Assembly (NCBI RefSeq): GCF_058153355.1
Contig: NZ_CM177019.1
Reading direction: 5' to 3' (one strand)
Length of the DNA stretch: 64,000 nucleotides
The number at the start of each line of letters is the position of its first letter. Positions within the stretch are counted from its first letter, which is position 1. Under the pieces are notes generated by a model. It did not search any database, was not told where the DNA came from, and worked only from the letters and a program-made list of their open reading frames with translations. The position numbers and the translations under genes are program-made. Positions 30,052-43,566 of the stretch are shown here, piece after piece.

Positions 30052-31341
30052 ATGTTACTGGCGGGCGCTATCTTTGTCCTGACCATCGTATTGGTTATCT
30101 GGCAGCCGAAAGGTTTAGGTATCGGCTGGAGTGCTACGCTCGGTGCGGTACTGGCATTAATGACGGGCGTGGTCCATCCGGGCGATATTCCGGTGGTGTG
30201 GAATATCGTCTGGAACGCGACGGCTGCGTTTATAGCCGTCATTATCATCAGCTTGCTGCTGGATGAGTCCGGCTTTTTTGAATGGGCGGCGCTGCACGTC
30301 TCACGCTGGGGCAATGGGCGCGGTCGCTTGCTGTTTACCTGGATTGTCCTGCTCGGTGCTACCGTTGCGGCCCTGTTTGCCAATGATGGCGCGGCGCTTA
30401 TTTTGACGCCGATTGTCATCGCCATGCTGCTGGCTTTAGGGTTCAGCAAAGGCACTACGCTGGCGTTTGTTATGGCGGCCGGATTCATTGCCGATACCGC
30501 CAGTCTGCCGCTTATTGTCTCTAACCTGGTGAATATCGTTTCCGCAGATTTCTTTGGCCTCGGCTTTCGCGAATACGCATCGGTGATGGTGCCGGTGGAT
30601 ATCGCTGCAATACTGGCTACCCTGGTGATGTTGCATCTCTATTTCCGCAAAGATATTCCGCAGAACTACGATATGGCGCTGCTGAAATCTCCCGCAGAAG
30701 CGATTAAAGATCCTGCCACCTTCAAAACTGGCTGGGTTGTTTTACTGTTTCTGCTGGTGGGATTTTTCGTCCTGGAACCGCTCGGCATTCCGGTAAGCGC
30801 CATTGCGGCAGTGGGCGCGCTGATATTATTTGCCGTCGCTAAACGCGGTCATGCAATTAATACGGGTAAAGTGCTGCGCGGTGCGCCCTGGCAGATTGTC
30901 ATCTTCTCGCTCGGCATGTATCTGGTGGTTTATGGCCTGCGCAATGCCGGGCTAACGGAATATCTTTCTGGCGTACTCAACGTACTGGCGGAAAACGGCC
31001 TGTGGGCCGCGACGCTCGGCACCGGATTCCTCACCGCCTTCCTCTCTTCTATTATGAACAATATGCCGACGGTACTGGTTGGCGCGTTGTCCATTGATGG
31101 CAGCACGGCATCTGGTGTCATCAAAGAAGCGATGGTTTATGCCAACGTGATTGGCTGCGATTTGGGACCGAAAATTACCCCAATTGGTAGCCTGGCAACG
31201 CTGCTCTGGCTGCACGTACTTTCGCAGAAGAATATGACTATCAGCTGGGGATATTACTTCCGTACAGGGATTATCATGACCCTGCCGGTGCTGTTTGTGA
31301 CGCTCGCCGCGCTGGCGCTTCGTCTCTCTTTCACATCGTAA
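30052..31341 (+). CDS. arsB: Arsenite/antimonite efflux pump ArsB
   Basis: 429-aa polytopic membrane protein from [19 protein letters not shown]. Confidence 0.9.
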
Positions 31342-31353
31342 TGAGATACTGAT

Positions 31354-31779
31354 ATGAGCAACATTACTATTTATCACAACCCGGCCTGCGGCACGTCGCG
31401 TAATACGCTGGAGATGATTCGCAACAGCGGTACAGAACCGACCATTATCTATTATCTGGAAACACCGCCCACACGCGATGAGCTGGTCAAACTCATTGCC
31501 GATATGGGGATTTACGTACGCGCGCTGTTGCGTAAAAACGTCGAGCCGTATGAGGAACTGGGCCTTGCAGAAGATAAATTTACTGACGATCGGTTAATCG
31601 ACTTTATGCTTCAGCACCCGATTCTGATTAATCGCCCGATTGTGGTGACGCCGCTGGGAACTCGCCTGTGCCGCCCTTCAGAAGTGGTGCTGGAAATTCT
31701 GCCAGATGCGCAACAAGGCGCGTTCACCAAGGAAGATGGCGAGAAAGTGGTTGATGAAGCGGGTAAACGGTTGAAATAA
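31354..31779 (+). CDS. arsC: Arsenate reductase ArsC (glutaredoxin-coupled)
   Basis: 141-aa ORF MSNITIYHNPACGTSRNTLEMIR with catalytic Cys in the NPACGTSR motif. Confidence 0.95.
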   Translation: MSNITIYHNPACGTSRNTLEMIRNSGTEPTIIYYLETPPTRDELVKLIADMGIYVRALLRKNVEPYEELGLAEDKFTDDRLIDFMLQHPILINRPIVVTPLGTRLCRPSEVVLEILPDAQQGAFTKEDGEKVVDEAGKRLK

Positions 31780-31782
31780 CTA

Positions 31783-31807
31783 AAGGGGGATATGCCCCCT
31801 TATTTGT
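31783..31807. terminator. Hairpin terminator shared by arsC and the convergent ArsR-family gene
   Basis: aaagggggatatgccccctt followed by tatttg. Confidence 0.6.
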
Positions 31808-32120
31808 TCTCCGCGGCTCCTTCGCCATCTGTTTTGCTGTTTACGCAGCACTCCTCACGTAAGAATTCAATTATCGCTTCCAGCATTGCGTATTGCGAAA
31901 CACACATCAGCGTCCGACTCTCACGGTTTTGTTTGACCAACCCTACCGATACCAGTGCTGAAATATGGTGACTGAGTGTAGAGCCGGGTATCCCAAGCTG
32001 CTTTTGCAACTCACCGACCGGCAACCCTTGTTCCCCCGCTTTGACCAGATGCTTAAATATGAACAAACGGGTCGGATGACCTAACTCTTTCAGTGCCTTA
32101 GCGACCTCTTCCAATTGCAT
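31800..32120 (-). CDS. ArsR/SmtB-family metalloregulator (second copy; C-terminal Cys pair)
   Basis: 106-aa ORF with a wHTH region (LPVGELQKQLGIPGSTLSHHISALVSVGLV) and C-terminal …REECCVNS; divergent from a permease gene. Confidence 0.75.
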   Translation of the reverse strand: MQLEEVAKALKELGHPTRLFIFKHLVKAGEQGLPVGELQKQLGIPGSTLSHHISALVSVGLVKQNRESRTLMCVSQYAMLEAIIEFLREECCVNSKTDGEGAAENK

Positions 32121-32215
32121 GTGTCACCCCCTCTGTCTGGTTGATATTTCGATAATACCAGAAATATCTTGATCTGAACTTCATTTCGATTATTCTGGAA
32201 ATATAGTTTTATTCA

Positions 32216-33229
32216 ATGAGGTTACTTATGAGTAGTTGGCTTGCGATGCTGCAAGATGCCGTAGAGATGTTTGTGTTTCTCGCCGTCGAGCTTTCTTTGC
32301 TGTTTATGGTGATTAGTGCCGGTGTCAGCCTGATAAGACAAAAGGTGCCAGACCATAAAATCCAGCAGATGATGGGGGCCAGAAAAGGGAGAGGCTATCT
32401 CCTGGCTGCTCTGTTGGGAGCCGTTACCCCGTTCTGTAGTTGCTCGACAATACCCATGCTACGTGGATTGTTGTCAGCGAAAGCCGGGTTTGGTCCGACT
32501 CTCACTTTTTTATTTGTTTCACCGTTACTTAATCCCATTATCGTCGGGTTAATGTGGGTGACCTTTGGTTGGAAAGTTACCTTGTTGTACGCGATTATCG
32601 CCGCCGGCGTCTCCGTACTTGCCAGTATTATCTTGGATTCTCTGAGATTTGAACGTCATATCATTGCCAGTAAAAGCTCATCAGCAAATTGTTGCTCTCC
32701 AGCCAAAACTTCGCCGGGGACGACATATACGCCAATAAAAGTGAGTTGCTGTAGTCCAGCGGCTAAAGCCATTGAGAAACCTGTAGTAAACTGTTGCAGT
32801 ACCAAAGCTGTGGTAAGTATTAATCCCATAAAACTAGCCACCAAAGATGCGTTGCAACAGTTTAAAGATGTACTGCCATATCTTTTGTTAGGGGTATTAA
32901 TAGGCTCTTTTATTTATGGCTTTATTCCCTCAGAGTGGATTGCCGCTCATGCAGGGGCAGATAATCCCTTCGCCATCCCATTGAGCGCCGTTGTCGGAAT
33001 CCCGCTGTATATCCGGGCAGAGGCGGTTATCCCTCTGGCATCTGTTCTGATGACAAAAGGAATGGGTCTGGGAGCATTAATGGCATTAATCATCGGCAGT
33101 GCCGGCGCAAGTCTGACAGAAGTGATATTACTTAAATCAATGTTCAGAATACCGATGATAGTTGCATTCCTGACGGTTATCTTAGGTATGGCTATCTTGA
33201 TGGGCTATTTGACTCAAATGCTATTTTAA
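32216..33229 (+). CDS. arsP: ArsP-like organoarsenical efflux permease with a Cys-rich loop
   Basis: 337-aa membrane protein containing TPFCSCSTIP, which I recall as the ArsP signature; internal Cys-rich segment with three CC dipeptides (NCCSPAK…SCCSPAAK…NCCSTKA). Confidence 0.7.
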   Translation: MRLLMSSWLAMLQDAVEMFVFLAVELSLLFMVISAGVSLIRQKVPDHKIQQMMGARKGRGYLLAALLGAVTPFCSCSTIPMLRGLLSAKAGFGPTLTFLFVSPLLNPIIVGLMWVTFGWKVTLLYAIIAAGVSVLASIILDSLRFERHIIASKSSSANCCSPAKTSPGTTYTPIKVSCCSPAAKAIEKPVVNCCSTKAVVSINPIKLATKDALQQFKDVLPYLLLGVLIGSFIYGFIPSEWIAAHAGADNPFAIPLSAVVGIPLYIRAEAVIPLASVLMTKGMGLGALMALIIGSAGASLTEVILLKSMFRIPMIVAFLTVILGMAILMGYLTQMLF

Positions 33230-33339
33230 ATAGATGCCAGCAGTAAACTATAAGGGTAAGCGTCTTATCAGGACCGTCTGGCAAATTCCCGATGCTTTGG
33301 ACAAAGTATCCACCACTAAATTAATAGTGGGTGATAAAA

Positions 33340-33374
33340 ATGTCAGATATACAAAAAAATGCCTCTCCGGGAAG
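33340..33374 (+). pseudogene. IS66-family tnpA (orf1), 5' fragment split by the IS4 insertion
   Basis: ATG at 33340 reads MSDIQKNASPGK then IS4 begins; the frame resumes at 34801 (…SPGRPKGCLNYPPEFKQRL…). Confidence 0.7.
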
Positions 33375-34800
33375 TAATGCCGATCAGTTAAGGATCAGTT
33401 GACCGATCCAGTGGCTGTGTAAGAATCCGGAAACGCTCACTTGTTTCCGGATTTTTTTATGCACATTGGACAGGCTCTTGATCTGGTATCCCGTTACGAT
33501 TCTCTGCGTAACCCACTGACTTCTCTGGGGGATTACCTCGACCCCGAACTCATCTCTCGTTGCCTTGCCGAATCAGGTACTGTAACGCTACGCAAGCGCC
33601 GTCTTCCCCTCGAAATGATGGTCTGGTGTATTGTTGGCATGGCGCTTGAGCGTAAAGAACCTCTTCACCAGATTGTGAATCGCCTGGACATCATGCTGCC
33701 GGGCAATCGCCCCTTCGTTGCCCCCAGTGCCGTTATTCAGGCCCGCCAGCGCCTGGGAAGTGAGGCTGTCCGCCGCGTGTTCACGAAAACAGCGCAGCTC
33801 TGGCATAACGCCACGCCGCATCCGCACTGGTGCGGCCTGACCCTGCTGGCCATCGATGGTGTGTTCTGGCGCACACCGGATACACCAGAGAACGATGCAG
33901 CCTTCCCCCGCCAGACACATGCCGGGAACCCGGCGCTCTACCCGCAGGTCAAAATGGTCTGCCAGATGGAACTGACCAGCCATCTGCTGACGGCTGCAGC
34001 CTTCGGCACGATGAAGAACAGCGAAAATGAGCTTGCTGAGCAACTTATAGAACAAACCGGCGATAACACTCTGACGTTAATGGATAAAGGTTATTACTCA
34101 CTGGGACTGTTAAATGCCTGGAGCCTGGCGGGAGAACACCGCCACTGGATGATACCTCTCAGAAAGGGAGCGCAATATGAAGAGATCAGAAAACTGGGTA
34201 AAGGCGATCATCTGGTGAAGCTGAAAACCAGCCCGCAGGCACGAAAAAAGTGGCCGGGACTGGGAAATGAAGTGACAGCCCGCCTGCTGACCGTGACGCG
34301 CAAAGGAAAAGTCTGCCATCTGCTGACGTCGATGACGGACGCCATGCGCTTCCCCGGAGGAGAAATGGCGGATCTGTACAGTCATCGCTGGGAAATCGAA
34401 CTGGGATACAGGGAGATAAAACAGACGATGCAACTGAGCAGGCTGACGCTGAGAAGTAAAAAGCCGGAGCTTGTGGAGCAAGAGCTGTGGGGTGTCTTAC
34501 TGGCTTATAATCTGGTGAGATATCAGATGATTAAAATGGCGGAACATCTGAAAGGTTACTGGCCGAATCAACTGAGTTTCTCAGAATCATGCGGAATGGT
34601 GATGAGAATGCTGATGACATTGCAGGGCGCTTCACCGGGACGTATACCGGAGCTGATGCGCGATCTTGCAAGTATGGGACAACTTGTGAAATTACCGACA
34701 AGAAGGGAAAGGGCCTTCCCGAGAGTGGTAAAGGAGAGGCCCTGGAAATACCCCACAGCCCCGAAAAAGAGCCAGTCAGTTGCTTAACTGACTGGCATTA
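33375..34800 (+). mobile_element. IS4 (1426 bp) nested inside the IS66-family element
   Basis: Terminal sequences TAATGCCGATCAG… and …CTGACTGGCATTA; 12-bp target duplication CTCTCCGGGAAG at 33363-33374 and 34801-34812; length matches the 1426 bp I recall for IS4. Confidence 0.9.
33459..34787 (+). CDS. insG: IS4 transposase InsG
   Basis: 442-aa product from [16 protein letters not shown]…; DDE transposase. Confidence 0.9.
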
Positions 34801-35197
34801 CTCTCCGGGAAGGCCTAAAGGGTGCCTGAATTATCCTCCTGAATTCAAACAACGACTCATAGAAGCATCATTCCAGCCAGGTGTTTCAATTTCCAGACTG
34901 GCCCTGGACAATGGTATTAATGCCAATCTGTTGTTCAAATGGCGTCAGAAATGGCGGCAGGGGAAGATAAAATTGCCATCATCAGAATCAGGCAGAGAAT
35001 CTCAGTTAATTCCTGTCACTATTGATGCCCAACTCCCAACTGCTCCGGCTAATGAGCCACTGACCGCAAGACCGTCAGTAACACCGGAAATACACAGCAT
35101 CTCCTGTGAGATTACGTTCAGAAACGGCACCCTTCGGTTGAACGGGGCAGTGAATGAAAATCTGCTGTCCTTGCTTATACAGGAGCTGAGACGGTGA
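34801..35197 (+). pseudogene. IS66-family tnpA (orf1), 3' portion downstream of the IS4 insertion
   Basis: Same frame as the 5' fragment; joined product is about 143 aa; stop overlaps tnpB start. Confidence 0.7.
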
Positions 35198-35541
35198 TAT
35201 CTCTCCCTGCAGGTTCGCGTATCTGGCTGGTTGCAGGTATCACCGATATGCGAAATGGCTTTAACGGCCTGGCCTCAAAAGTTCAGAACGTCCTGAAGGA
35301 TGACCCGTTCTCCGGGCATCTGTTCATCTTCCGCGGACGCCGGGGTGACCAGATAAAAGTGTTGTGGGCTGACAGTGACGGACTGTGCCTCTTCACCAGA
35401 CGCCTGGAGCGGGGCCGCTTCGTCTGGCCGGTCACCCGTGACGGCAAGGTGCACCTTACTCCGGCCCAGTTATCCATGCTTCTTGAGGGCATCGACTGGA
35501 AACACCCGAAACGAACGGAACGCGCTGGCATCCGCATATAA
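35194..35541 (+). CDS. IS66-family TnpB (orf2)
   Basis: 115-aa ORF (MISLPAGSRIWLVAGITDMRNGFNGLA…), typical of IS66 orf2. Confidence 0.85.
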   Translation: MISLPAGSRIWLVAGITDMRNGFNGLASKVQNVLKDDPFSGHLFIFRGRRGDQIKVLWADSDGLCLFTRRLERGRFVWPVTRDGKVHLTPAQLSMLLEGIDWKHPKRTERAGIRI

Positions 35542-35560
35542 CCCGTTGTAAAGTGAGGAT

Positions 35561-37132
35561 ATGGACACCTCACTTGCTCATGAGAATGCCCGCCTGCGGG
35601 CACTGTTGCAGACGCAACAGGACACCATCCGCCAGATGGCGAAATACAACCGCCTGCTCTCACAGCGGGTGGCGGCTTATGCTTCCGAAATCAACCGGCT
35701 GAAGGCGCTGGTTGCAAAACTGCAGCGCATGCAGTTCGGTAAAAGCTCAGAAAAACTTCGTGCAAAAACCGAACGGCAGATACAGGAAGCACAGGAGCGA
35801 ATCAGCGCTCTTCAGGAAGAAATGGCGGAAACGCTGGGTGAGCAATATGACCCGGTACTGCCATCTCCCCTGCGCCAGTCTTCAGCCCGTAAACCGTTAC
35901 CTGCCTCACTTCCCCGTGAAACCCGGGTCATCCGTCCGGAAGAGGAATGCTGCCCGGCCTGTGGTGGCGAACTCAGTTCTCTGGGATGTGATGTGTCAGA
36001 GCAACTGGAGCTTATCAGCAGCGCCTTTAAGGTTATCGAAACACAACGTCCGAAACTGGCCTGTTGCCGGTGCGACCATATCGTGCAGGCTCCGGTGCCT
36101 TCAAAACCCATTGCACGCAGTTATGCCGGAGCGGGGCTTCTGGCCCATGTTGTCGCTGGAAAATATGCAGACCATCTGCCGTTATACCGCCAGTCAGAAA
36201 TATACCGTCGTCAGGGCGTGGAGCTGAGCCGTGCCACACTGGGGCGCTGGACAGGTGCTGTTGCTGAACTGCTGGAACCGCTGTATGACATCCTGCGCCA
36301 GTATGTGCTGATGCCCGGTAAAGTCCATGCCGATGATATCCCCGTTCCGGTCCAGGAGCCGGGCAGCGGTAAAACAAGGACTGCCCGGCTGTGGGTCTAC
36401 GTTCGTGATGACCGTAACGCCGGTTCGGAAATGCCTCCGGCGGTCTGGTTCGCGTACAGCCCGGACCGGAAAGGTATCCATCCACAGAATCATCTGGCCG
36501 GTTACAGCGGAGTGCTTCAGGCCGATGCTTACGGTGGTTACCGGGCGTTGTACGAATCCGGCAGAATAACGGAAGCCGCATGTATGGCTCATGCCCGGAG
36601 AAAAATCCACGATGTGCATGCAAGAGTGCCCACCGACATCACCACGGAAGCCCTGCAGCGTATCGGTGAACTGTATGCCATCGAGGCAGAGGTCCGGGGC
36701 TGTTCAGCAGAACAGCGTCTGGCGGCAAGAAAAGCCAGAGCCGCGCCACTGATGCAGTCACTGTATGACTGGATACAGCAACAGATGAAAACACTGTCGC
36801 GTCACTCGGACACGGCAAAAGCGTTCGCATACCTGCTGAAACAGTGGGATGCACTGAACGTGTACTGCAGTAATGGCTGGGTGGAAATCGACAACAACAT
36901 CGCAGAGAACGCCTTACGGGGAGTGGCCGTAGGCCGGAAAAACTGGCTCTTCGCGGGTTCTGACAGCGGTGGTGAACATGCTGCGGTGTTGTACTCGCTG
37001 ATCGGCACATGCCGTCTGAACAATGTGGAGCCAGAAAAGTGGCTGCGTTACGTCATTGAACATATCCAGGACTGGCCGGCAAACCGGGTACGCGATCTGT
37101 TGCCCTGGAAAGTTGATCTGAGCTCTCAGTAA
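35561..37132 (+). CDS. IS66-family transposase TnpC (orf3)
   Basis: 523-aa ORF with an N-terminal leucine-zipper-like region, a CxxC…CxxC zinc-finger-like segment (CPACGG…CCRCDH) and a DDE domain. Confidence 0.85.
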
Positions 37133-37724
37133 ATATCAATACGGTTCTGGCGAGCCGCTTACCTATAAGGAGCATTGTGAGTGCCTTATCCTTCTGAGTA
37201 GAAAATCATAGATAGGATAATCCTTAAAAATCACAAATAACTTAACTAATGCTTTGAGAATGATGACGGATCCGTCAGTAAGTCATCAATCGACAATCAC
37301 CACGCAATCATGCTTCTCTGACATTTTATCGGAGAAGCAATGCCTCTTTGTCTCAGTGCTATCCCCCCTTTTAAAGGGCAGATTTCAGTCGCCAATACAA
37401 CACATTTTTAAATACACTTTAACCTGGTTCATTATTACACATCTAAAACATCACAAAAATATCACTTCACACGCTATCGGAGAACATCATAACTTTTTAA
37501 AATCAGCGCTTTTTGATAGTTGTTAATGTTTTCCTTTACGATACTATCACTGCCCTTTTTTTATACACAAATATTACCGGGTGGAAATGAAAGGGAAGTT
37601 AAAGGTAATTATATCAGGAAGATATGACGCATTGTGTTTATTTCCGCGTAGAAGAAAATCCATTCCTGCTCTAATTCTCCGATTTGCAAAAATTTAGCGA
37701 AATAGATGAACAATAAGGAATGTT

Positions 37725-38948
37725 ATGTCAATTGACTTTACCCCAGGTATGATAAATACATATCACGGCGATATTTATAACCGCACAACAGATACCGACA
37801 ATATTAAAACACCAAACACACCGATGTGGCCTTGTGATAATCAGGAAGAACAGCAACCCATTAATTTTTCATTGTCTGAAGAAGGATATAACGCTGAACA
37901 ATTTGATTTAGCGCAACAACAACTCCAACAAATTAATGCGTGCCACACGAACACCACATATACAAATGCAGACTACTCAAAAGTTGTGGCTCAACTTGTA
38001 AAACTTATTAATAACATTGAAACGATAAGTTCGACACCACTTACGCAACAGACACAATCAATACTTAATCAGATTAATAACATTAGATACGAAAAGAATA
38101 AAAACTCTGAATCTGAAATCATTGTTGTCTTTAATCCTAAGCCCAATAAGCCAATCATAACTAAAATTCTCGTAGAAGAGGGAATACCAGTAAGATTCAG
38201 TGTCCAAACCGTTTCTTCCGAAAATAAAAATTTTTCTGGGCAACGAACTGATTTACCAACTGATATAAAAGATATTCAACGCTTGTACCAAAAAATGACA
38301 AGGTTGTATATTGAGCACAGTAAAAATGAAAACAGGATGAAAGTCTTTGCTGGAACCAACTTTATTGATTTCAATATGACAGGACAGGACCTGTCCGGGT
38401 TCGTTCTAACCTTGTCAAGGTTTTATTTCGAAGATCTACTTAATGTAAACTTCACTGACGCAAATTTATTTGATACTATTTTTTCACATAAGGAAAACCC
38501 TATCACAAAATTACATAAAGATGAACAATATGTTGACAAACAAATCAATGGGTTATTTTCAACATTATTAACCATTAATGACAACTCTTTAAGAGCAAAA
38601 GCGGAAATTGCTTCGATAATAATAGAATTATTAGAAACCAAGGTAAATAATCTTTCATACAACGACATAATAAAATATCAGAAAGAATTCCAAAAAGAAT
38701 GTTACAAGCAAGTTAAATATTTTACAACACCCTCTCGATACAATAGAATTAAAAAATGGGCACAAATGTCTGAATATCAATTCGAAATATTTCAACACGA
38801 TACGTTTCATCCTAAAAAAATGTCATACGCACCTTATTTAAAGAGATCGCTACCTGATGAAAAAACTATAAATTATGGGGTGGAAATAGAAATACCAACT
38901 GGCAAAAGAATTCGCTTATCAAATCATTACCAGAATATAATCCCATAA
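37725..38948 (+). CDS. yhiS: Uncharacterised protein YhiS (intact here) with pentapeptide-like repeats
   Basis: 407-aa AT-rich ORF immediately upstream of slp; segment [40 protein letters not shown] resembles pentapeptide repeats. Confidence 0.7.
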
Positions 38949-39193
38949 TATTGAACATTAGCGCTTTATAAGCATTGAATAAAAATAGATTTTATGTACC
39001 TTTAAAAAAAGGCTATCTTATGGGGCGATGGATACTCATGTCACGCCCCAAAATTAACAGAATTAAACTAAACAGAATGGATATAAACATCAGACAGGTT
39101 TACGTTACTATCAGGCATATCGCCTCAGAATCAGATGAAAACTATAAAGAAATATCTATTATGGTTTTAATATTTGTTGATAAGGATAGTAAC

Positions 39194-39760
39194 ATGAACA
39201 TGACAAAAGGTGCACTCATCCTCAGCCTTTCATTTTTGCTTGCCGCATGTAGTTCAATTCCGCAAAATATCAAAGGCAATAACCAACCTGATATTCAAAA
39301 AAGTTTTGTTGCTGTTCATAACCAGCCGGGGTTATATGTTGGTCAACAAGCGCGCTTTGGCGGGAAGGTTATCAACGTTATCAATGGCAAAACGGATACG
39401 TTGTTAGAAATCGCTGTATTACCGTTGGATAGCTATGCGAAGCCTGATATTGAAGCCAACTATCAGGGCCGACTGCTTGCCAGACAAAGCGGCTTCCTTG
39501 ATCCAGTGAACTATCGTAATCACTTTGTTACCATCCTCGGTACCATTCAGGGTGAACAACCTGGCTTTATCAATAAAGTCCCGTATAACTTCCTGGAAGT
39601 GAATATGCAGGGCATCCAGGTGTGGCATTTGAGAGAAGTGGTTAATACCACCTATAACCTGTGGGATTACGGCTATGGTGCATTCTGGCCGGAACCGGGC
39701 TGGGGCGCGCCTTACTACACCAATGCGGTGAGTCAAGTAACACCTGAGCTGGTCAAATAA
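39194..39760 (+). CDS. slp: Starvation-inducible outer-membrane lipoprotein Slp
   Basis: 188-aa product from MNMTKGALILSLSFLLAACSS (lipobox LAAC). Confidence 0.9.
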   Translation: MNMTKGALILSLSFLLAACSSIPQNIKGNNQPDIQKSFVAVHNQPGLYVGQQARFGGKVINVINGKTDTLLEIAVLPLDSYAKPDIEANYQGRLLARQSGFLDPVNYRNHFVTILGTIQGEQPGFINKVPYNFLEVNMQGIQVWHLREVVNTTYNLWDYGYGAFWPEPGWGAPYYTNAVSQVTPELVK

Positions 39761-39915
39761 CACCACCGAGAGATGCAGATGCTTTCTCAGCATCTGCATC
39801 ATGCATTACATTAAATTAATACACAGCCAGCTAACTATTATTATTATAAGCCCTGTCCTGTTAATTACCTTTGGCAAACTGATTATAAAGTTAATGTCCG
39901 CACCAGGAGTCGGTT

Positions 39916-40446
39916 ATGTTTCTTATAATTACCAGGGATACGATGTTCTTCACTGCGATGAAAAACATTCTGAGCAAAGGTAATGTCGTTCATATACAGA
40001 ACGAAGAAGAGATCGACGTAATGTTGCATCAGCATGCCTTCGTCATTATTGATACATTAATGAATAATGTATTTCATTCTAATTTGCTCACTCAGATTGA
40101 ACGATTAAAACCTGTCCATGTGATTATTTTCTCTCCCTTTAATATTAAACGCTGCCTGGGGAAAGTACCGGTGACCTTTGTTCCGCGAACTATCACCATC
40201 ATCGACTTTGTCGCACTCATCAATGGCAGTTACTGCTCTGTGCCTGAAGCGGATGTGTCCCTTTCGCGCAAGCAGCATCAGGTTCTGAGCTGCATTGCGA
40301 ATCAAATGACAACGGAAGATATTCTGGAGAAACTGAAAATATCGCTAAAAACGTTCTACTGCCATAAACACAATATCATGATGATCCTCAATCTTAAGCG
40401 GATCAATGAGTTGGTACGCCATCAGCATATTGATTATCTGGTGTGA
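39916..40446 (+). CDS. dctR: LuxR-family transcriptional regulator DctR (YhiF)
   Basis: 176-aa ORF with a C-terminal LuxR-type HTH. Confidence 0.9.
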   Translation: MFLIITRDTMFFTAMKNILSKGNVVHIQNEEEIDVMLHQHAFVIIDTLMNNVFHSNLLTQIERLKPVHVIIFSPFNIKRCLGKVPVTFVPRTITIIDFVALINGSYCSVPEADVSLSRKQHQVLSCIANQMTTEDILEKLKISLKTFYCHKHNIMMILNLKRINELVRHQHIDYLV

Positions 40447-40506
40447 TCGATTGATTAATATAAAGAGGCCCAGCAATAAATAGCCAGACCTCCCTTTAAT
40501 TATACG

Positions 40507-41535
40507 TTATGCAGTAACGCCTTCCGGTATCAGCGAAGCAATTTGCTTACGCCATTGCGCTTGCTCCTGTTCGCCTTCTGTACGTTGACCATAAAGTTGC
40601 GCTATCTGCGTACCATCATGGGCAAACAATTCCAGACTGGTCACATAACCGTCACTAGCAGGTTTACGGGTTACCCAGGTTTCAGCAATGCTCTCTTCTA
40701 ATAGATGAAGAGTAAACGTCGGGTTAAAAATATTCAGCCAACCTTTCATTGGCACCACTTTTTCTACCACGCCAGTGAAAATCTGTACGCAGCCACGGTT
40801 GCCAACAAACACCATGATTTCATTGCCATCCTGCTGTGCAGATTCAAGAATTTGCGCCAACGCACTGTTGGATACTTTGCAGGCCAAATCATCTGCCACC
40901 AAATTGAACGCCTGTTGGCGCGTCAGGTTGTGGCGCTTGAGCAACGTAAAAAACTGATGAACGTCGGTCATCGCCCGCCACTCTTGCTCGACCACACTGG
41001 CATCGGCTCGCGTTTGAACAACTGGCGCATCAACGGCTTTTAACTCAAGCGGCGTATTCTCATCGGTGATAAACCGTGCCAGAAGCTCACTCCATGCCGC
41101 CATATCGGTATTGTCGGTGGCATAAACTTTTAGTAATGCATCGCCCTGATGATCAAAGAACTGAATACTCTGGCGTTCGCCACGAGTCGTATTTTCTTTG
41201 ATGTGGAAAACACTGGCCCATTGATTGAGAAACAGACGCAAATCCAGCGCGCGCGGATTGAGGATCAATCCGGCATGTCCGTTTAAATGCTGGTTTGTGA
41301 ACGCACCAACTTGCTCATGGACTGCATATTCATTACGACAAATACATTTGGTCTCGCCAACACTTTCGAGCGCCGCCAGAATGTCACGGATATCGCCGCA
41401 CATCCGCCACGCATCGTGCGTGACGCGCGCAAATGCCAGTTCTGCTTCGCTAATATTCATTAAACCTGCGATGTCACGCGCGTACTTTCCGGGATTTTGT
41501 TCTTTTAACTCAAGCCAGCGTGTGTAGTGGTTCAT
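40507..41535 (-). CDS. chuS: Haem oxygenase / haem degradation protein ChuS (HemS family)
   Basis: 342-aa ORF immediately downstream of the TonB-dependent receptor gene; translation matches my recollection of ChuS/ShuS. Confidence 0.85.
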   Translation of the reverse strand: MNHYTRWLELKEQNPGKYARDIAGLMNISEAELAFARVTHDAWRMCGDIRDILAALESVGETKCICRNEYAVHEQVGAFTNQHLNGHAGLILNPRALDLRLFLNQWASVFHIKENTTRGERQSIQFFDHQGDALLKVYATDNTDMAAWSELLARFITDENTPLELKAVDAPVVQTRADASVVEQEWRAMTDVHQFFTLLKRHNLTRQQAFNLVADDLACKVSNSALAQILESAQQDGNEIMVFVGNRGCVQIFTGVVEKVVPMKGWLNIFNPTFTLHLLEESIAETWVTRKPASDGYVTSLELFAHDGTQIAQLYGQRTEGEQEQAQWRKQIASLIPEGVTA

Positions 41536-41583
41536 TGTCTCTCTTCCTTCCAGATAAATGCCCCGAAATATCGGGGCAGATGA

Positions 41584-43566
41584 TTACCATTGATAACTAA
41601 CGAAAATTTTTCCGTTACGACCATCCTGTGGGATGCCTTGCGGCGACCAGTACTCTTTGTCGAAGGCGTTGCCCAATACCAGAGTAGTGGTCATACCTTT
41701 GAGCGCCTGCTGCCCTTGATAACTGACGTAGAAATCATTCACACCATAGCCAGGTTGTTTGCTGTAACTGCTGCTGATATGTGTTGAGCGATCGGCAAAC
41801 GTACCGACCCAACCAACAGAGAAGCCACTGTGAGCGATCGGAATATTCAGGGTGCTGGTAACGGTATCCGGGTTAATACTGGAAATATATTCCCCGGTAT
41901 CGGTGTCTTTGCCGCGGGTACGGTTATAGGCCACATCAAGGCTAAACAGATCAGTGGTATATTTCGTCATCACATCCCAGCCCCAGATTTTGGCGTTCGG
42001 GACGTTATACGACATAGTTGTCGCCGCCGCGAAATCGACAGTCGTGGAGATGTAATCCTTCGCTTTGGTATCAAAGTAGCTGGCTTTAAATTCCAGGGCA
42101 TCATTGGACAACATCAGGTCATCAAAACGCAGCCCAAAACCGTACTCCTGAGTTTCGTTAGTTTCCGGACGTAAGTTCGGGTTTGGCACCCAATAGTTGG
42201 TATAGAAGCGACCAATCGAGAAGTGCTTAGAATCGTTATACATTTCGCCCATCGTCGGGGCGCGGAATGCCTGGGCATATGAGCCAAATAACATCAGCCA
42301 GTTGGTCGGGTTGATAGTCATCCCCGCACGAGATGACCATTTGTCAGCATCAACATCTTTGTAGCCGTCGCTGCTACCGTGATAACTGTCATAGCGGGTT
42401 CCGCCAAGCAGGGTAATCGGCAGATCGCGTAAGGTGATCTCATCCTGTAGCCAGCCAGAGCTAAAATCGATTTTTGCTTGCGGAAAGCCCGTCGTCGCGC
42501 CACCCGGATGTTGTTCCTGACGATAATACTCACCGCCATATGTCAGTAAGTGAGAAGCGAAACTGTCGGCAAATAGAGTGGAACGGTTCTCCAGCCTGGC
42601 TCCTTTTGTTATCTGTTCACGATACTCGCCGGAACTCCCCGTGTTTTGCGCATTAATACGGACTTCCGACCAGTAAATTTTTGCATCTGCATTTAACCAG
42701 TCGTTGCCCTGCGGGGCGAGTTTATAAGAAAGCTGCGCATCGCGTTGAATTGTTGAACGATCAACCATCGGGTTGCTGTTTTCAGAAGCCTCAACGGTCT
42801 GCGGATTTTTTGGTTCACGCGCGTCGTTGTTGTAGTAACGCACTAAACCGCTCAGAGACTGGGCTGAATCAATTTGCCAGGTCCCTTTCGCCAGCATGTT
42901 ATTAATGGACTCGTCATTCGGCGCGGTTTCACCATTGCTCTGGCGTAAATCACCCCGATCGCGACTGGACCAGGCCACAATACCATCCAGATTTTCAGTT
43001 CGCCCAAACGCGCTCGCGCCTAATCCCAGGCTATGGTCCCCCGTGCCACCAGTACCAAAGACACGAAAACCACTACTTTGTCCTTCCTGCAATAAATCTT
43101 TTGCATCGACCGTATCGTAGGAGATCACCCCACCCAGCGCGCCACTGCCATACAGTAATGCTGAAGGTCCGCGAACAATCTCAACACGCTTGATCAGCGC
43201 CGGATCGAGAAAAGTACCATTCAGATGTCCGGTATCCGTTCCCTGGCGAACACCATCGACAAGAACCAGCACGCCGCGATGATCATAGCCACGCATATTT
43301 ACATCCTGACCGTTGGTTCGTCCGGTACCATCAAGAGTAATTCCAGGAACATGACGCAGCAGATCGGTGGCTGAAGTAGCCGTTTGATTTTCAGGAGCGG
43401 AAGTGTCGATGACGCTGACCATCATAGGCGCTTCGAAGGAACTACGGGCATTCCCCGTTGCCGTAACGGTCATGGTTTCAGTAGCAAAAGCAAACGTTGG
43501 CAAGGTGGCAGAAACAGCCAAAGCCAACAAACTCAAACGCAACGAGGTAAATTGCGGACGTGACAT
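41584..43566 (-). CDS. chuA: TonB-dependent outer-membrane haem receptor ChuA
   Basis: 660-aa ORF with signal peptide, plug domain and C-terminal aromatic residue (…FVSYQW); Fur box upstream. Confidence 0.9.
   Translation of the reverse strand: MSRPQFTSLRLSLLALAVSATLPTFAFATETMTVTATGNARSSFEAPMMVSVIDTSAPENQTATSATDLLRHVPGITLDGTGRTNGQDVNMRGYDHRGVLVLVDGVRQGTDTGHLNGTFLDPALIKRVEIVRGPSALLYGSGALGGVISYDTVDAKDLLQEGQSSGFRVFGTGGTGDHSLGLGASAFGRTENLDGIVAWSSRDRGDLRQSNGETAPNDESINNMLAKGTWQIDSAQSLSGLVRYYNNDAREPKNPQTVEASENSNPMVDRSTIQRDAQLSYKLAPQGNDWLNADAKIYWSEVRINAQNTGSSGEYREQITKGARLENRSTLFADSFASHLLTYGGEYYRQEQHPGGATTGFPQAKIDFSSGWLQDEITLRDLPITLLGGTRYDSYHGSSDGYKDVDADKWSSRAGMTINPTNWLMLFGSYAQAFRAPTMGEMYNDSKHFSIGRFYTNYWVPNPNLRPETNETQEYGFGLRFDDLMLSNDALEFKASYFDTKAKDYISTTVDFAAATTMSYNVPNAKIWGWDVMTKYTTDLFSLDVAYNRTRGKDTDTGEYISSINPDTVTSTLNIPIAHSGFSVGWVGTFADRSTHISSSYSKQPGYGVNDFYVSYQGQQALKGMTTTLVLGNAFDKEYWSPQGIPQDGRNGKIFVSYQW

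Follow-up and report, generated by a model that had tools for sequence, protein, structure and literature searches.

The 64,000-nucleotide stretch of DNA analysed here (contig NZ_CM177019.1 of RefSeq assembly GCF_058153355.1; hereafter the window) carries at positions 37725–38948, on the plus strand, an intact copy of yhiS, one of the remaining Escherichia coli (E. coli) genes without an assigned function. The coding sequence opens with ATG, ends at its single, terminal stop and specifies 407 amino acids (aa; 47.5 kDa, pI 6.3), and a Shine–Dalgarno motif, AAGGA (37715–37719, plus strand), lies 5 nt 5′ of the start codon. The remaining five frames of the same interval contain 17–49 stops over ~406 codons, and from these stop densities the chance probability of an open 407-codon frame is ~3 × 10⁻⁸ to 4 × 10⁻¹⁴. 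Orthology to E. coli yhiS follows from the gene order (ars operon–yhiS–slp–dctR) together with full-length similarity, and the synteny was confirmed at 25 fetched genomic loci and at one further locus, L027. In K-12, yhiS is split by the insertion sequence (IS) IS5 after codon 248, and its second half is additionally frameshifted; the window copy contains no IS. The interval 37725–38948 is a genuine, intact, coding yhiS.

The gene is conspicuously AT-rich. Its open reading frame (ORF) has a guanine–cytosine (GC) content of 32.5% compared with 48.8% for the window, it sits in a block of 33% GC (37171–39193), and its product is dominated by Ile (40), Asn (39), Thr (34) and Lys (31) among 407 residues. 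A first-pass annotation made from the letters alone had described an uninterrupted 407-aa ORF, noted that the K-12 gene is split by IS5 and remarked on an AT-rich, Asn/Ile/Lys-rich gene upstream of slp; all three statements hold. The region 5′ of yhiS (37171–37724, plus strand, 35% GC) presumably bears the promoter, and its between-strain identity is 78–93%, a divergence equal to that of the gene itself, with flanks at 99%. Promoter-like matches across 37000–39300 were not commoner than in shuffled sequence. Downstream, slp, which encodes an outer-membrane lipoprotein, begins 245 bp away (39194–39760, plus strand); no terminator-like structure was found in the interval between the two genes (38949–39193), so read-through into slp is possible. 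An Rfam scan of 31000–41000 returned zero RNA families.

The middle of YhiS is organized in fives. Ten contiguous pentapeptide repeats occupy residues 206–255 (38340–38489, plus strand), corresponding to ~2.5 coils with a net charge of −4; the central position is Leu, Phe or Met in all ten pentads, and Asp or Asn precedes it in 6/10. The string quoted in the first-pass annotation covers residues 211–250, and the register runs one pentad further on each side. Among 20,000 composition-preserving shuffles, the longest run of L/F/M-centred pentads was 8 (mean 2.75) and none reached 10; the periodicity therefore withstands the comparison with composition-matched shuffles that had been named as its refutation test. 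Pentapeptide-repeat proteins are defined by at least 8 contiguous A(D/N)(L/F)XX repeats, frequently with helical caps (PMC8145042), and the ten contiguous pentads of YhiS fall within this definition.

Profile comparisons point the same way. A profile built from 17 YhiS alleles, compared with the sequences of the PDB, ranked Rfr32 (2f3l, E = 0.006) first, followed by thylakoid TL15 and QnrB1, all aligned to residues 202–255; the QnrB1 match was not significant (E 2.8–3.5). Compared with 1.84 billion representative sequences, the profile retrieved a single full-length cluster (E. coli), many yhiS fragments and a set of long, distant proteins, which matched only at ~205–280, in several stretches each, with E values down to 6 × 10⁻⁹. 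All ten of the long distant matches that we scanned with Pfam carry the pentapeptide family PF00805, at 123–297 bits. The match to these proteins is clean over residues 181–280 of YhiS, of which residues 181–277 align as one full module, consisting of a linker helix (consensus ‘..EQLYSTxSYxDKDLSG’ in the distant modules), about ten pentads with an ‘F(S/T)GQ(D/N)L’ unit, and the next linker. When YhiS itself was scanned with Pfam, NCBIfam, PHROGs and PADLOC, no model passed its threshold; PF00805 alone appeared, below its cut-off, and was the leading weak match in 16 of the 17 alleles; PADLOC defence-protein models yielded no family at E ≤ 10, and no informative match to a PHROGs phage family was found. 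The profile search suggested in the first-pass annotation was thus answered in two ways, sub-threshold with Pfam and positive with the allele profile, which retrieves real pentapeptide proteins. Judged by its sequence, the middle region of YhiS is a true pentapeptide-repeat array, though a short one. Public records describe YhiS as a ‘hypothetical protein’ with no domain, because PF00805 stays under its cut-off.

Comparison with characterized and modular relatives places the array more precisely. YhiS shares with the PF00805 proteins Rfr32 (2F3L) and TL15 (3N90) the A(D/N)(L/F)XX pentads, reciprocal profile matches and predicted caps, but differs in having only ~2.5 coils within a 407-aa, multi-region protein and a sub-gathering score, and at the inward-facing position two residues ahead of the centre, Phe, Gln or Glu often takes the place of a small residue. 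The modular, linker-type environmental proteins (P0159, P0169, P0152 and P0176) resemble YhiS at 25–40% identity over ~70 residues, with residues 181–277 equivalent to one of their modules. Whereas these proteins contain 4–12 modules in series, often with signal or anchor sequences (one or two have a weak PEP-CTERM match), YhiS has one module amid unrelated sequence.

Structure prediction gave a qualified picture of the fold. The beta-helix that the first-pass annotation expected was absent from AlphaFold models based on the alleles alone and emerged at moderate confidence once the distant repeat segments were added. In this augmented model of residues 170–407 (mean predicted local distance difference test (pLDDT) score 63.5, predicted template modelling (TM) score 0.57), pLDDT reached 77–84 over residues 210–258, isolated beta bridges were placed at 212, 222, 227, 232–234, 242, 247 and 252–254, and helices at 181–198 and 267–283 flanked the array. 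The spacing of the modelled bridges (5, 10 and 20 residues), which was read from the bridges and not from coordinates, would correspond to a 5-residue register and 20-residue coils, as a quadrilateral beta-helix predicts. Foldseek searches of the PDB found no significant match; NleL ranked first (E = 0.08, TM 0.14), followed by pentapeptide proteins at E 0.4–2, among them AlbG and MfpA (E 0.9–1.6).

Around the array, the predicted architecture comprises several distinct regions. Residues 1–55 (37725–37889, plus strand) form an acidic, Thr/Asn/Pro-rich tail that is predicted to be disordered; within it, residues 1–30 are hydrophilic, Thr/Asn/Ile-rich and contain zero Leu. Residues 181–205 (38265–38339, plus strand) are a predicted capping helix that aligns with the ‘..EQLYSTxSY..’ linker of the distant modules, and residues 262–277 (38508–38555, plus strand) align with ‘QLYSTKSYKDKDLSG’, the linker that separates the modules of the modular pentapeptide proteins. 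Overlapping the latter, residues 267–361 (38523–38807, plus strand) make up an all-alpha C-terminal domain of six predicted helices (pLDDT ~60–80), for which no specific structural relative was found. The protein ends in a nearly invariant tail (residues 382–407; 38868–38945, plus strand), in which a beta hairpin is predicted at low confidence. YhiS has neither a signal peptide nor a transmembrane segment (maximum KD19 0.92).

At the population level, yhiS is far more variable than its neighbours. The locus is matched in 5,415 of 5,426 complete genomes, 10 of them at ≥99% identity to the window and 4,642 at 80–90%. Against six comparison strains, yhiS is 87–94% identical, compared with 98.6–99.3% for slp and 97–99.8% for dctR, and slp is annotated in 24 of the fetched genomes, 23 of which share one Slp protein accession. 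The synonymous divergence (dS) of yhiS, 0.18–0.30, is at most ~2x that of arsC and dctR, whereas its nonsynonymous divergence (dN) is 10–50x higher; neighbouring genes have dN of 0–0.019 at comparable dS. Synonymous divergence alone was rejected as the cause of yhiS variability, as the dN excess far outstrips the dS excess. Because dS is modest and dN far higher, most of the protein divergence reflects weak constraint.

Weak constraint is nevertheless constraint. The most divergent allele, from L027, encodes an intact protein of 410 aa with 64% amino-acid identity to the window, and the proportions of nonsynonymous and synonymous differences between the two (pN 0.17 and pS 0.41; Fisher p = 3 × 10⁻¹⁴) correspond to dN 0.197, dS 0.60 and dN/dS 0.33. 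The remaining allele pairs have dN/dS of 0.37–0.72. The nonsynonymous deficit was significant in three further pairs (p = 4 × 10⁻⁸ to 2 × 10⁻³), but in the closest informative pair dN/dS was not significantly below 1 (p = 0.23). The repeat and the C-terminal tail are under the strongest constraint, the repeat segment being the most constrained part of the protein (dN/dS 0.20–0.32). The yhiS frame has stayed open across dS = 0.60 in 32%-GC DNA, in which the other frames gather 17–52 stops. The gene is under weak purifying selection, strongest on the repeat.

Divergence at yhiS is also discontinuous along the chromosome. In L027, gor, slp, dctR, chuS and chuA are 99.6–99.8% identical to the window, but yhiS and its upstream region only 77–78%. 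In L006, yhiS matches the window at 96–100% over the first ~700 nt, at 83–89% over the next 400 and at 99% at the end, and block mosaics are visible in the allele alignments. As read from these alignments, yhiS exists as at least four deep allele classes that recombine.

Many strains carry a broken copy. We classified 30 systematically spread complete genomes, of which 25 were fetched and 5 classed from their coverage pattern. The 407-aa gene is intact in 12/30 genomes, and the other 18 carry lesions of at least seven kinds. The commonest is a T6-to-T5 frameshift yielding a 281-aa product (7 genomes, one of which also has a nonsense codon), followed by a large deletion that leaves ~380 nt of yhiS (5 genomes, phylogroup-B2-type strains); a 1-bp deletion in an A7 tract gives a 371-aa product in O157:H7 and HS (2 genomes), the IS5-split gene of the K-12 lineage accounts for 2, and an A5 insertion and replacement of the gene by IS1 (ETEC4090) for 1 each. 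IS elements, the frequency of which the first-pass annotation had proposed to compare across alleles, disrupt the gene in 3 of the 30 genomes (IS5 2, IS1 1), the other losses being frameshifts or deletion. The T6 tract (38479–38484, plus strand; codons 252–254) is a frameshift site on at least two allele backgrounds, and at the A7 tract (38814–38820, plus strand; codons 364–366) the O157:H7 and HS deletions are independent events. Both tract lesions are found on two allele backgrounds apiece, and for each of them there is an intact allele at ~100% identity. Because disrupted alleles have such near-identical intact relatives, the losses are recent and recurrent.

Annotation of these forms is uneven in RefSeq. 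The L019 copy (NZ_CP015241.1, 618–1841) carries a ‘frameshifted’ flag despite an intact frame of 407 codons, and the 371-aa frameshift product of O157:H7 and HS (L005 and L022) is annotated as a normal protein, which suggests that the truncated 371-aa form is serving as the annotation reference. Annotation pipelines should take the 407-aa form, not the frameshifted 371-aa form, as the reference, although the practical consequence is small.

The distribution of yhiS is narrow. All named sources of YhiS homologues are E. coli or Shigella, and in the protein database the intact 407-aa form predominates, in clusters of 8,964 and 2,855 members. A peptide-pattern scan of 100,044 species-representative genomes returned zero yhiS, with a sensitivity that is uncertain given that the E. 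coli representative also went unreported; a degenerate DNA pattern, for which 23 loci and the window had served as the validation set, likewise returned zero yhiS from the same 100,044 genomes. No copy was found in phages by tblastn, and no genuine plasmid copy in PLSDB. Three plasmid-collection entries that did match (NZ_CP134663.1, NZ_CP141089.1 and NZ_OL790696.1) are 4.8–4.9 Mb long and evidently misfiled E. coli chromosomes. By these searches, yhiS is confined to the E. coli/Shigella lineage. The low GC content suggests a foreign origin, and in this respect the composition fits the horizontal acquisition proposed in the first-pass annotation; the searches for a donor, plasmid or phage copy that would complete that proposal found none.

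Earlier literature mentions yhiS as an uncharacterised pseudogene, as one of eleven K-12 IS5 sites or as an ‘unknown gene’ bordering the acid fitness island (PMC6928379, PMC8170033, PMC11677980, PMC7260982, PMC9729726 and two bioRxiv preprints). Beyond these mentions it figures only as the point at which IS5-mediated deletions and duplications end; laboratory-evolution reports show such rearrangements to be tolerated. Functional study has passed the gene by, since the copy in the laboratory strain is broken; intact yhiS is available for study in strains beyond K-12, including the window strain. The single helix-capped pentapeptide module, previously unannotated, offers a first structural handle on an otherwise unmatched protein. 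The most informative feature is the combination of lineage restriction, divergent recombining alleles and recurrent recent loss. Such a population pattern is typical of genes that interact with host, phage or competitor, but could equally mark a gene that is being lost.

Taking these lines together, we consider it probable that YhiS is a soluble cytoplasmic protein restricted to E. coli and Shigella in which a short beta-helix acts as a protein-binding scaffold, with a dispensable, niche-specific function. Ahead of the pentapeptide module would lie an acidic, disordered N-terminal stretch and a helical part, and behind it the all-alpha domain and an invariant 26-residue tail; the short beta-helix would offer a rigid surface for protein–protein interaction and would not mimic DNA. 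Given its 33% GC, yhiS may be a silencing target of the nucleoid protein H-NS, which binds AT-rich DNA. Several results pull against this interpretation. PF00805 scores 12.2 bits (E = 0.14) on window YhiS, under its 20.2-bit gathering cut-off, and none of the 17 alleles reaches that cut-off (best E = 0.037). The AlphaFold model from the alleles alone has a mean pLDDT of 40.9, with 26–32 over the repeat, and no beta-helix, and the addition of distant repeat segments to the alignment biases the augmented model towards that fold. Deletion or overexpression of the already-disrupted K-12 yhiS left the chlorhexidine minimum inhibitory concentration unchanged (PMC8170033). Disruption in 60% of sampled genomes is also compatible with a gene that is no longer useful, and the scaffold role is suggested by analogy, only from the roles of multidomain pentapeptide proteins.

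A first alternative is that yhiS has no current function and is an old acquired gene drifting to loss, with the window copy simply not yet hit. The lesions in 18/30 genomes, the dN/dS of up to 0.72 with a closest informative pair indistinguishable from neutrality, the tolerated IS5-mediated deletions and duplications and the lack of a known K-12 phenotype would all be expected of such a gene. Yet dN/dS is significantly below 1 in the deeper comparisons (p = 3 × 10⁻¹⁴ to 2 × 10⁻³), the frame has remained open across dS = 0.60 in 32%-GC DNA, constraint is uneven and peaks on the repeat and the C-terminal tail, the disrupted alleles have near-identical intact relatives and must have been lost recently, and the intact 407-aa form predominates in the protein database; we regard drift as unlikely. 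A slightly less likely explanation still is that yhiS is a target of diversifying or frequency-dependent selection, as an orphan host- or competitor-facing factor such as a substrate of ETT2, the second, largely degraded type III secretion system of E. coli; the deep recombining alleles and the recurrent loss are the basis of this idea. On this view, the single capped module would serve as the surface for binding, and ancient allele classes (down to 77% nucleotide identity) would have been kept in the species, with recombination moving them between near-identical backgrounds while many lineages discard the gene. Equally improbable, in our estimate, is the related proposal of a cryptic or orphan type III substrate: YhiS would be a chromosome-backbone effector, delivered through the locus of enterocyte effacement (LEE) or ETT2 and decaying alongside its secretion system, in which the pentapeptide array serves as scaffold, as in PipB2, EspY3, SopA/NleL and EspX. 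The layout of variable N-terminus, short repeat array and helical domain has precedents in EspY3, whose arrays have only 8 and 9 repeats (PMC6313403), and in the multidomain pentapeptide effectors SopA and NleL (PMC8145042), and NleL heads the Foldseek ranking, although not significantly. The gene is confined to one lineage, evolves fast, has mosaic alleles and often becomes a pseudogene, and residues 1–30 are hydrophilic, Leu-free and devoid of a Sec signal, a compositional lead only. K-12 YjbI, of the SopA/NleL/EspX family, offers a close parallel, being encoded by a gene of nearly the same GC content (32.6% versus 32.5%) in which a central pentapeptide array precedes an Asn/Ile/Lys-rich helical region and which is likewise a K-12 pseudogene. 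The resemblance stops there: YjbI, which served as the positive control, has the SopA central domain PF13981 (188 bits), whereas in the 17 YhiS alleles neither the SopA central nor its C-terminal domain was detected at E ≤ 10, hhalign of the YhiS profile with YjbI gave a probability of 0.4% over just 21 repeat columns, and tblastn gave zero matches. PipB2 and EspY3 share only the short pentapeptide arrays with YhiS; an exhaustive profile search detected no sequence relationship, and a WEx5F-type N-terminal domain or motif was not seen on reading the sequence. Nor were secretion-system, chaperone or effector genes found nearby, where the neighbours are ars, slp–dctR and chu, and our literature search linked yhiS to secretion nowhere. 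As a separate observation, K-12 yjbI (L026:4754–6334) is a frameshifted SopA-family pentapeptide pseudogene, with no detectable homology to yhiS.

Two further explanations fare worse than these. One makes yhiS the first gene of an acid-fitness-island transcription unit with slp and dctR, acting in acid or envelope stress, in keeping with its position. But slp and dctR are nearly invariant where yhiS is hypervariable, strains that have lost yhiS by deletion or IS retain slp–dctR, and the gene is disrupted in K-12, the reference strain for acid resistance; we think this very unlikely. The other casts YhiS as a Qnr/MfpA/McbG/AlbG-type DNA mimic shielding gyrase or another DNA-binding enzyme, an option raised in the first-pass annotation. 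Like YhiS, these proteins belong to the pentapeptide fold class and have repeats with an acidic surface (net −4 in YhiS), and QnrB1, AlbG and MfpA are among its weak sequence or fold matches, but any pentapeptide array would give such matches, and they were not significant. Known pentapeptide DNA mimics are dimeric rods of about DNA size with 8–9 full coils, and dimerize through a C-terminal helix (PMC8145042), whereas YhiS has ~2.5 coils, and ~350 of its 407 residues are not repeat; its size effectively excludes this role, which we rate as the least credible of all. A protein-binding scaffold with a niche-specific, dispensable function is the interpretation that we favour over each of these.

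Upstream of yhiS, the window contains a composite IS of 3,907 bp (33256–37162, plus strand) that ends 562 bp 5′ of the yhiS ATG, is flanked by an 8-bp target duplication, CTATAAGG (33248–33255 and 37163–37170), and is missing from the nearest strain. Its ends are of IS66 type (GTAAGCG.../...CGCTTAC), and it encodes IS66 tnpA-like (34589–35197), tnpB (35194–35541) and tnpC (35561–37132) genes together with an IS4-family transposase ORF (33441–34787); the arrangement looks like one IS inserted within another. The first-pass annotation had placed yhiS next to an IS insertion hotspot; the IS context observed comprises this element, IS5 inside K-12 yhiS and IS1 in place of the gene in ETEC4090.

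Further differences between strains surround these elements. The interval 31800–33229, between arsC and yhiS, encodes a minus-strand regulator of the ArsR/SmtB type together with a permease of the ArsP type. These two genes occur side by side in L001, L006–L009 and L012–L018, are missing from K-12, O157:H7 and others, and constitute a second presence/absence polymorphism at the ars–yhiS junction. The arsC gene itself (31354–31779) is unusually divergent for a core-like gene, with 92.7–96.5% identity and dS of 0.14–0.30 in the same strains, so the zone of raised divergence begins before yhiS. On the other side, the chu haem-uptake genes (chuS and chuA; 40507–43566 and beyond) directly follow dctR at the position occupied by yhiD–hdeBA in K-12, an arrangement that assigns the window to a chu-positive lineage of E. 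coli.

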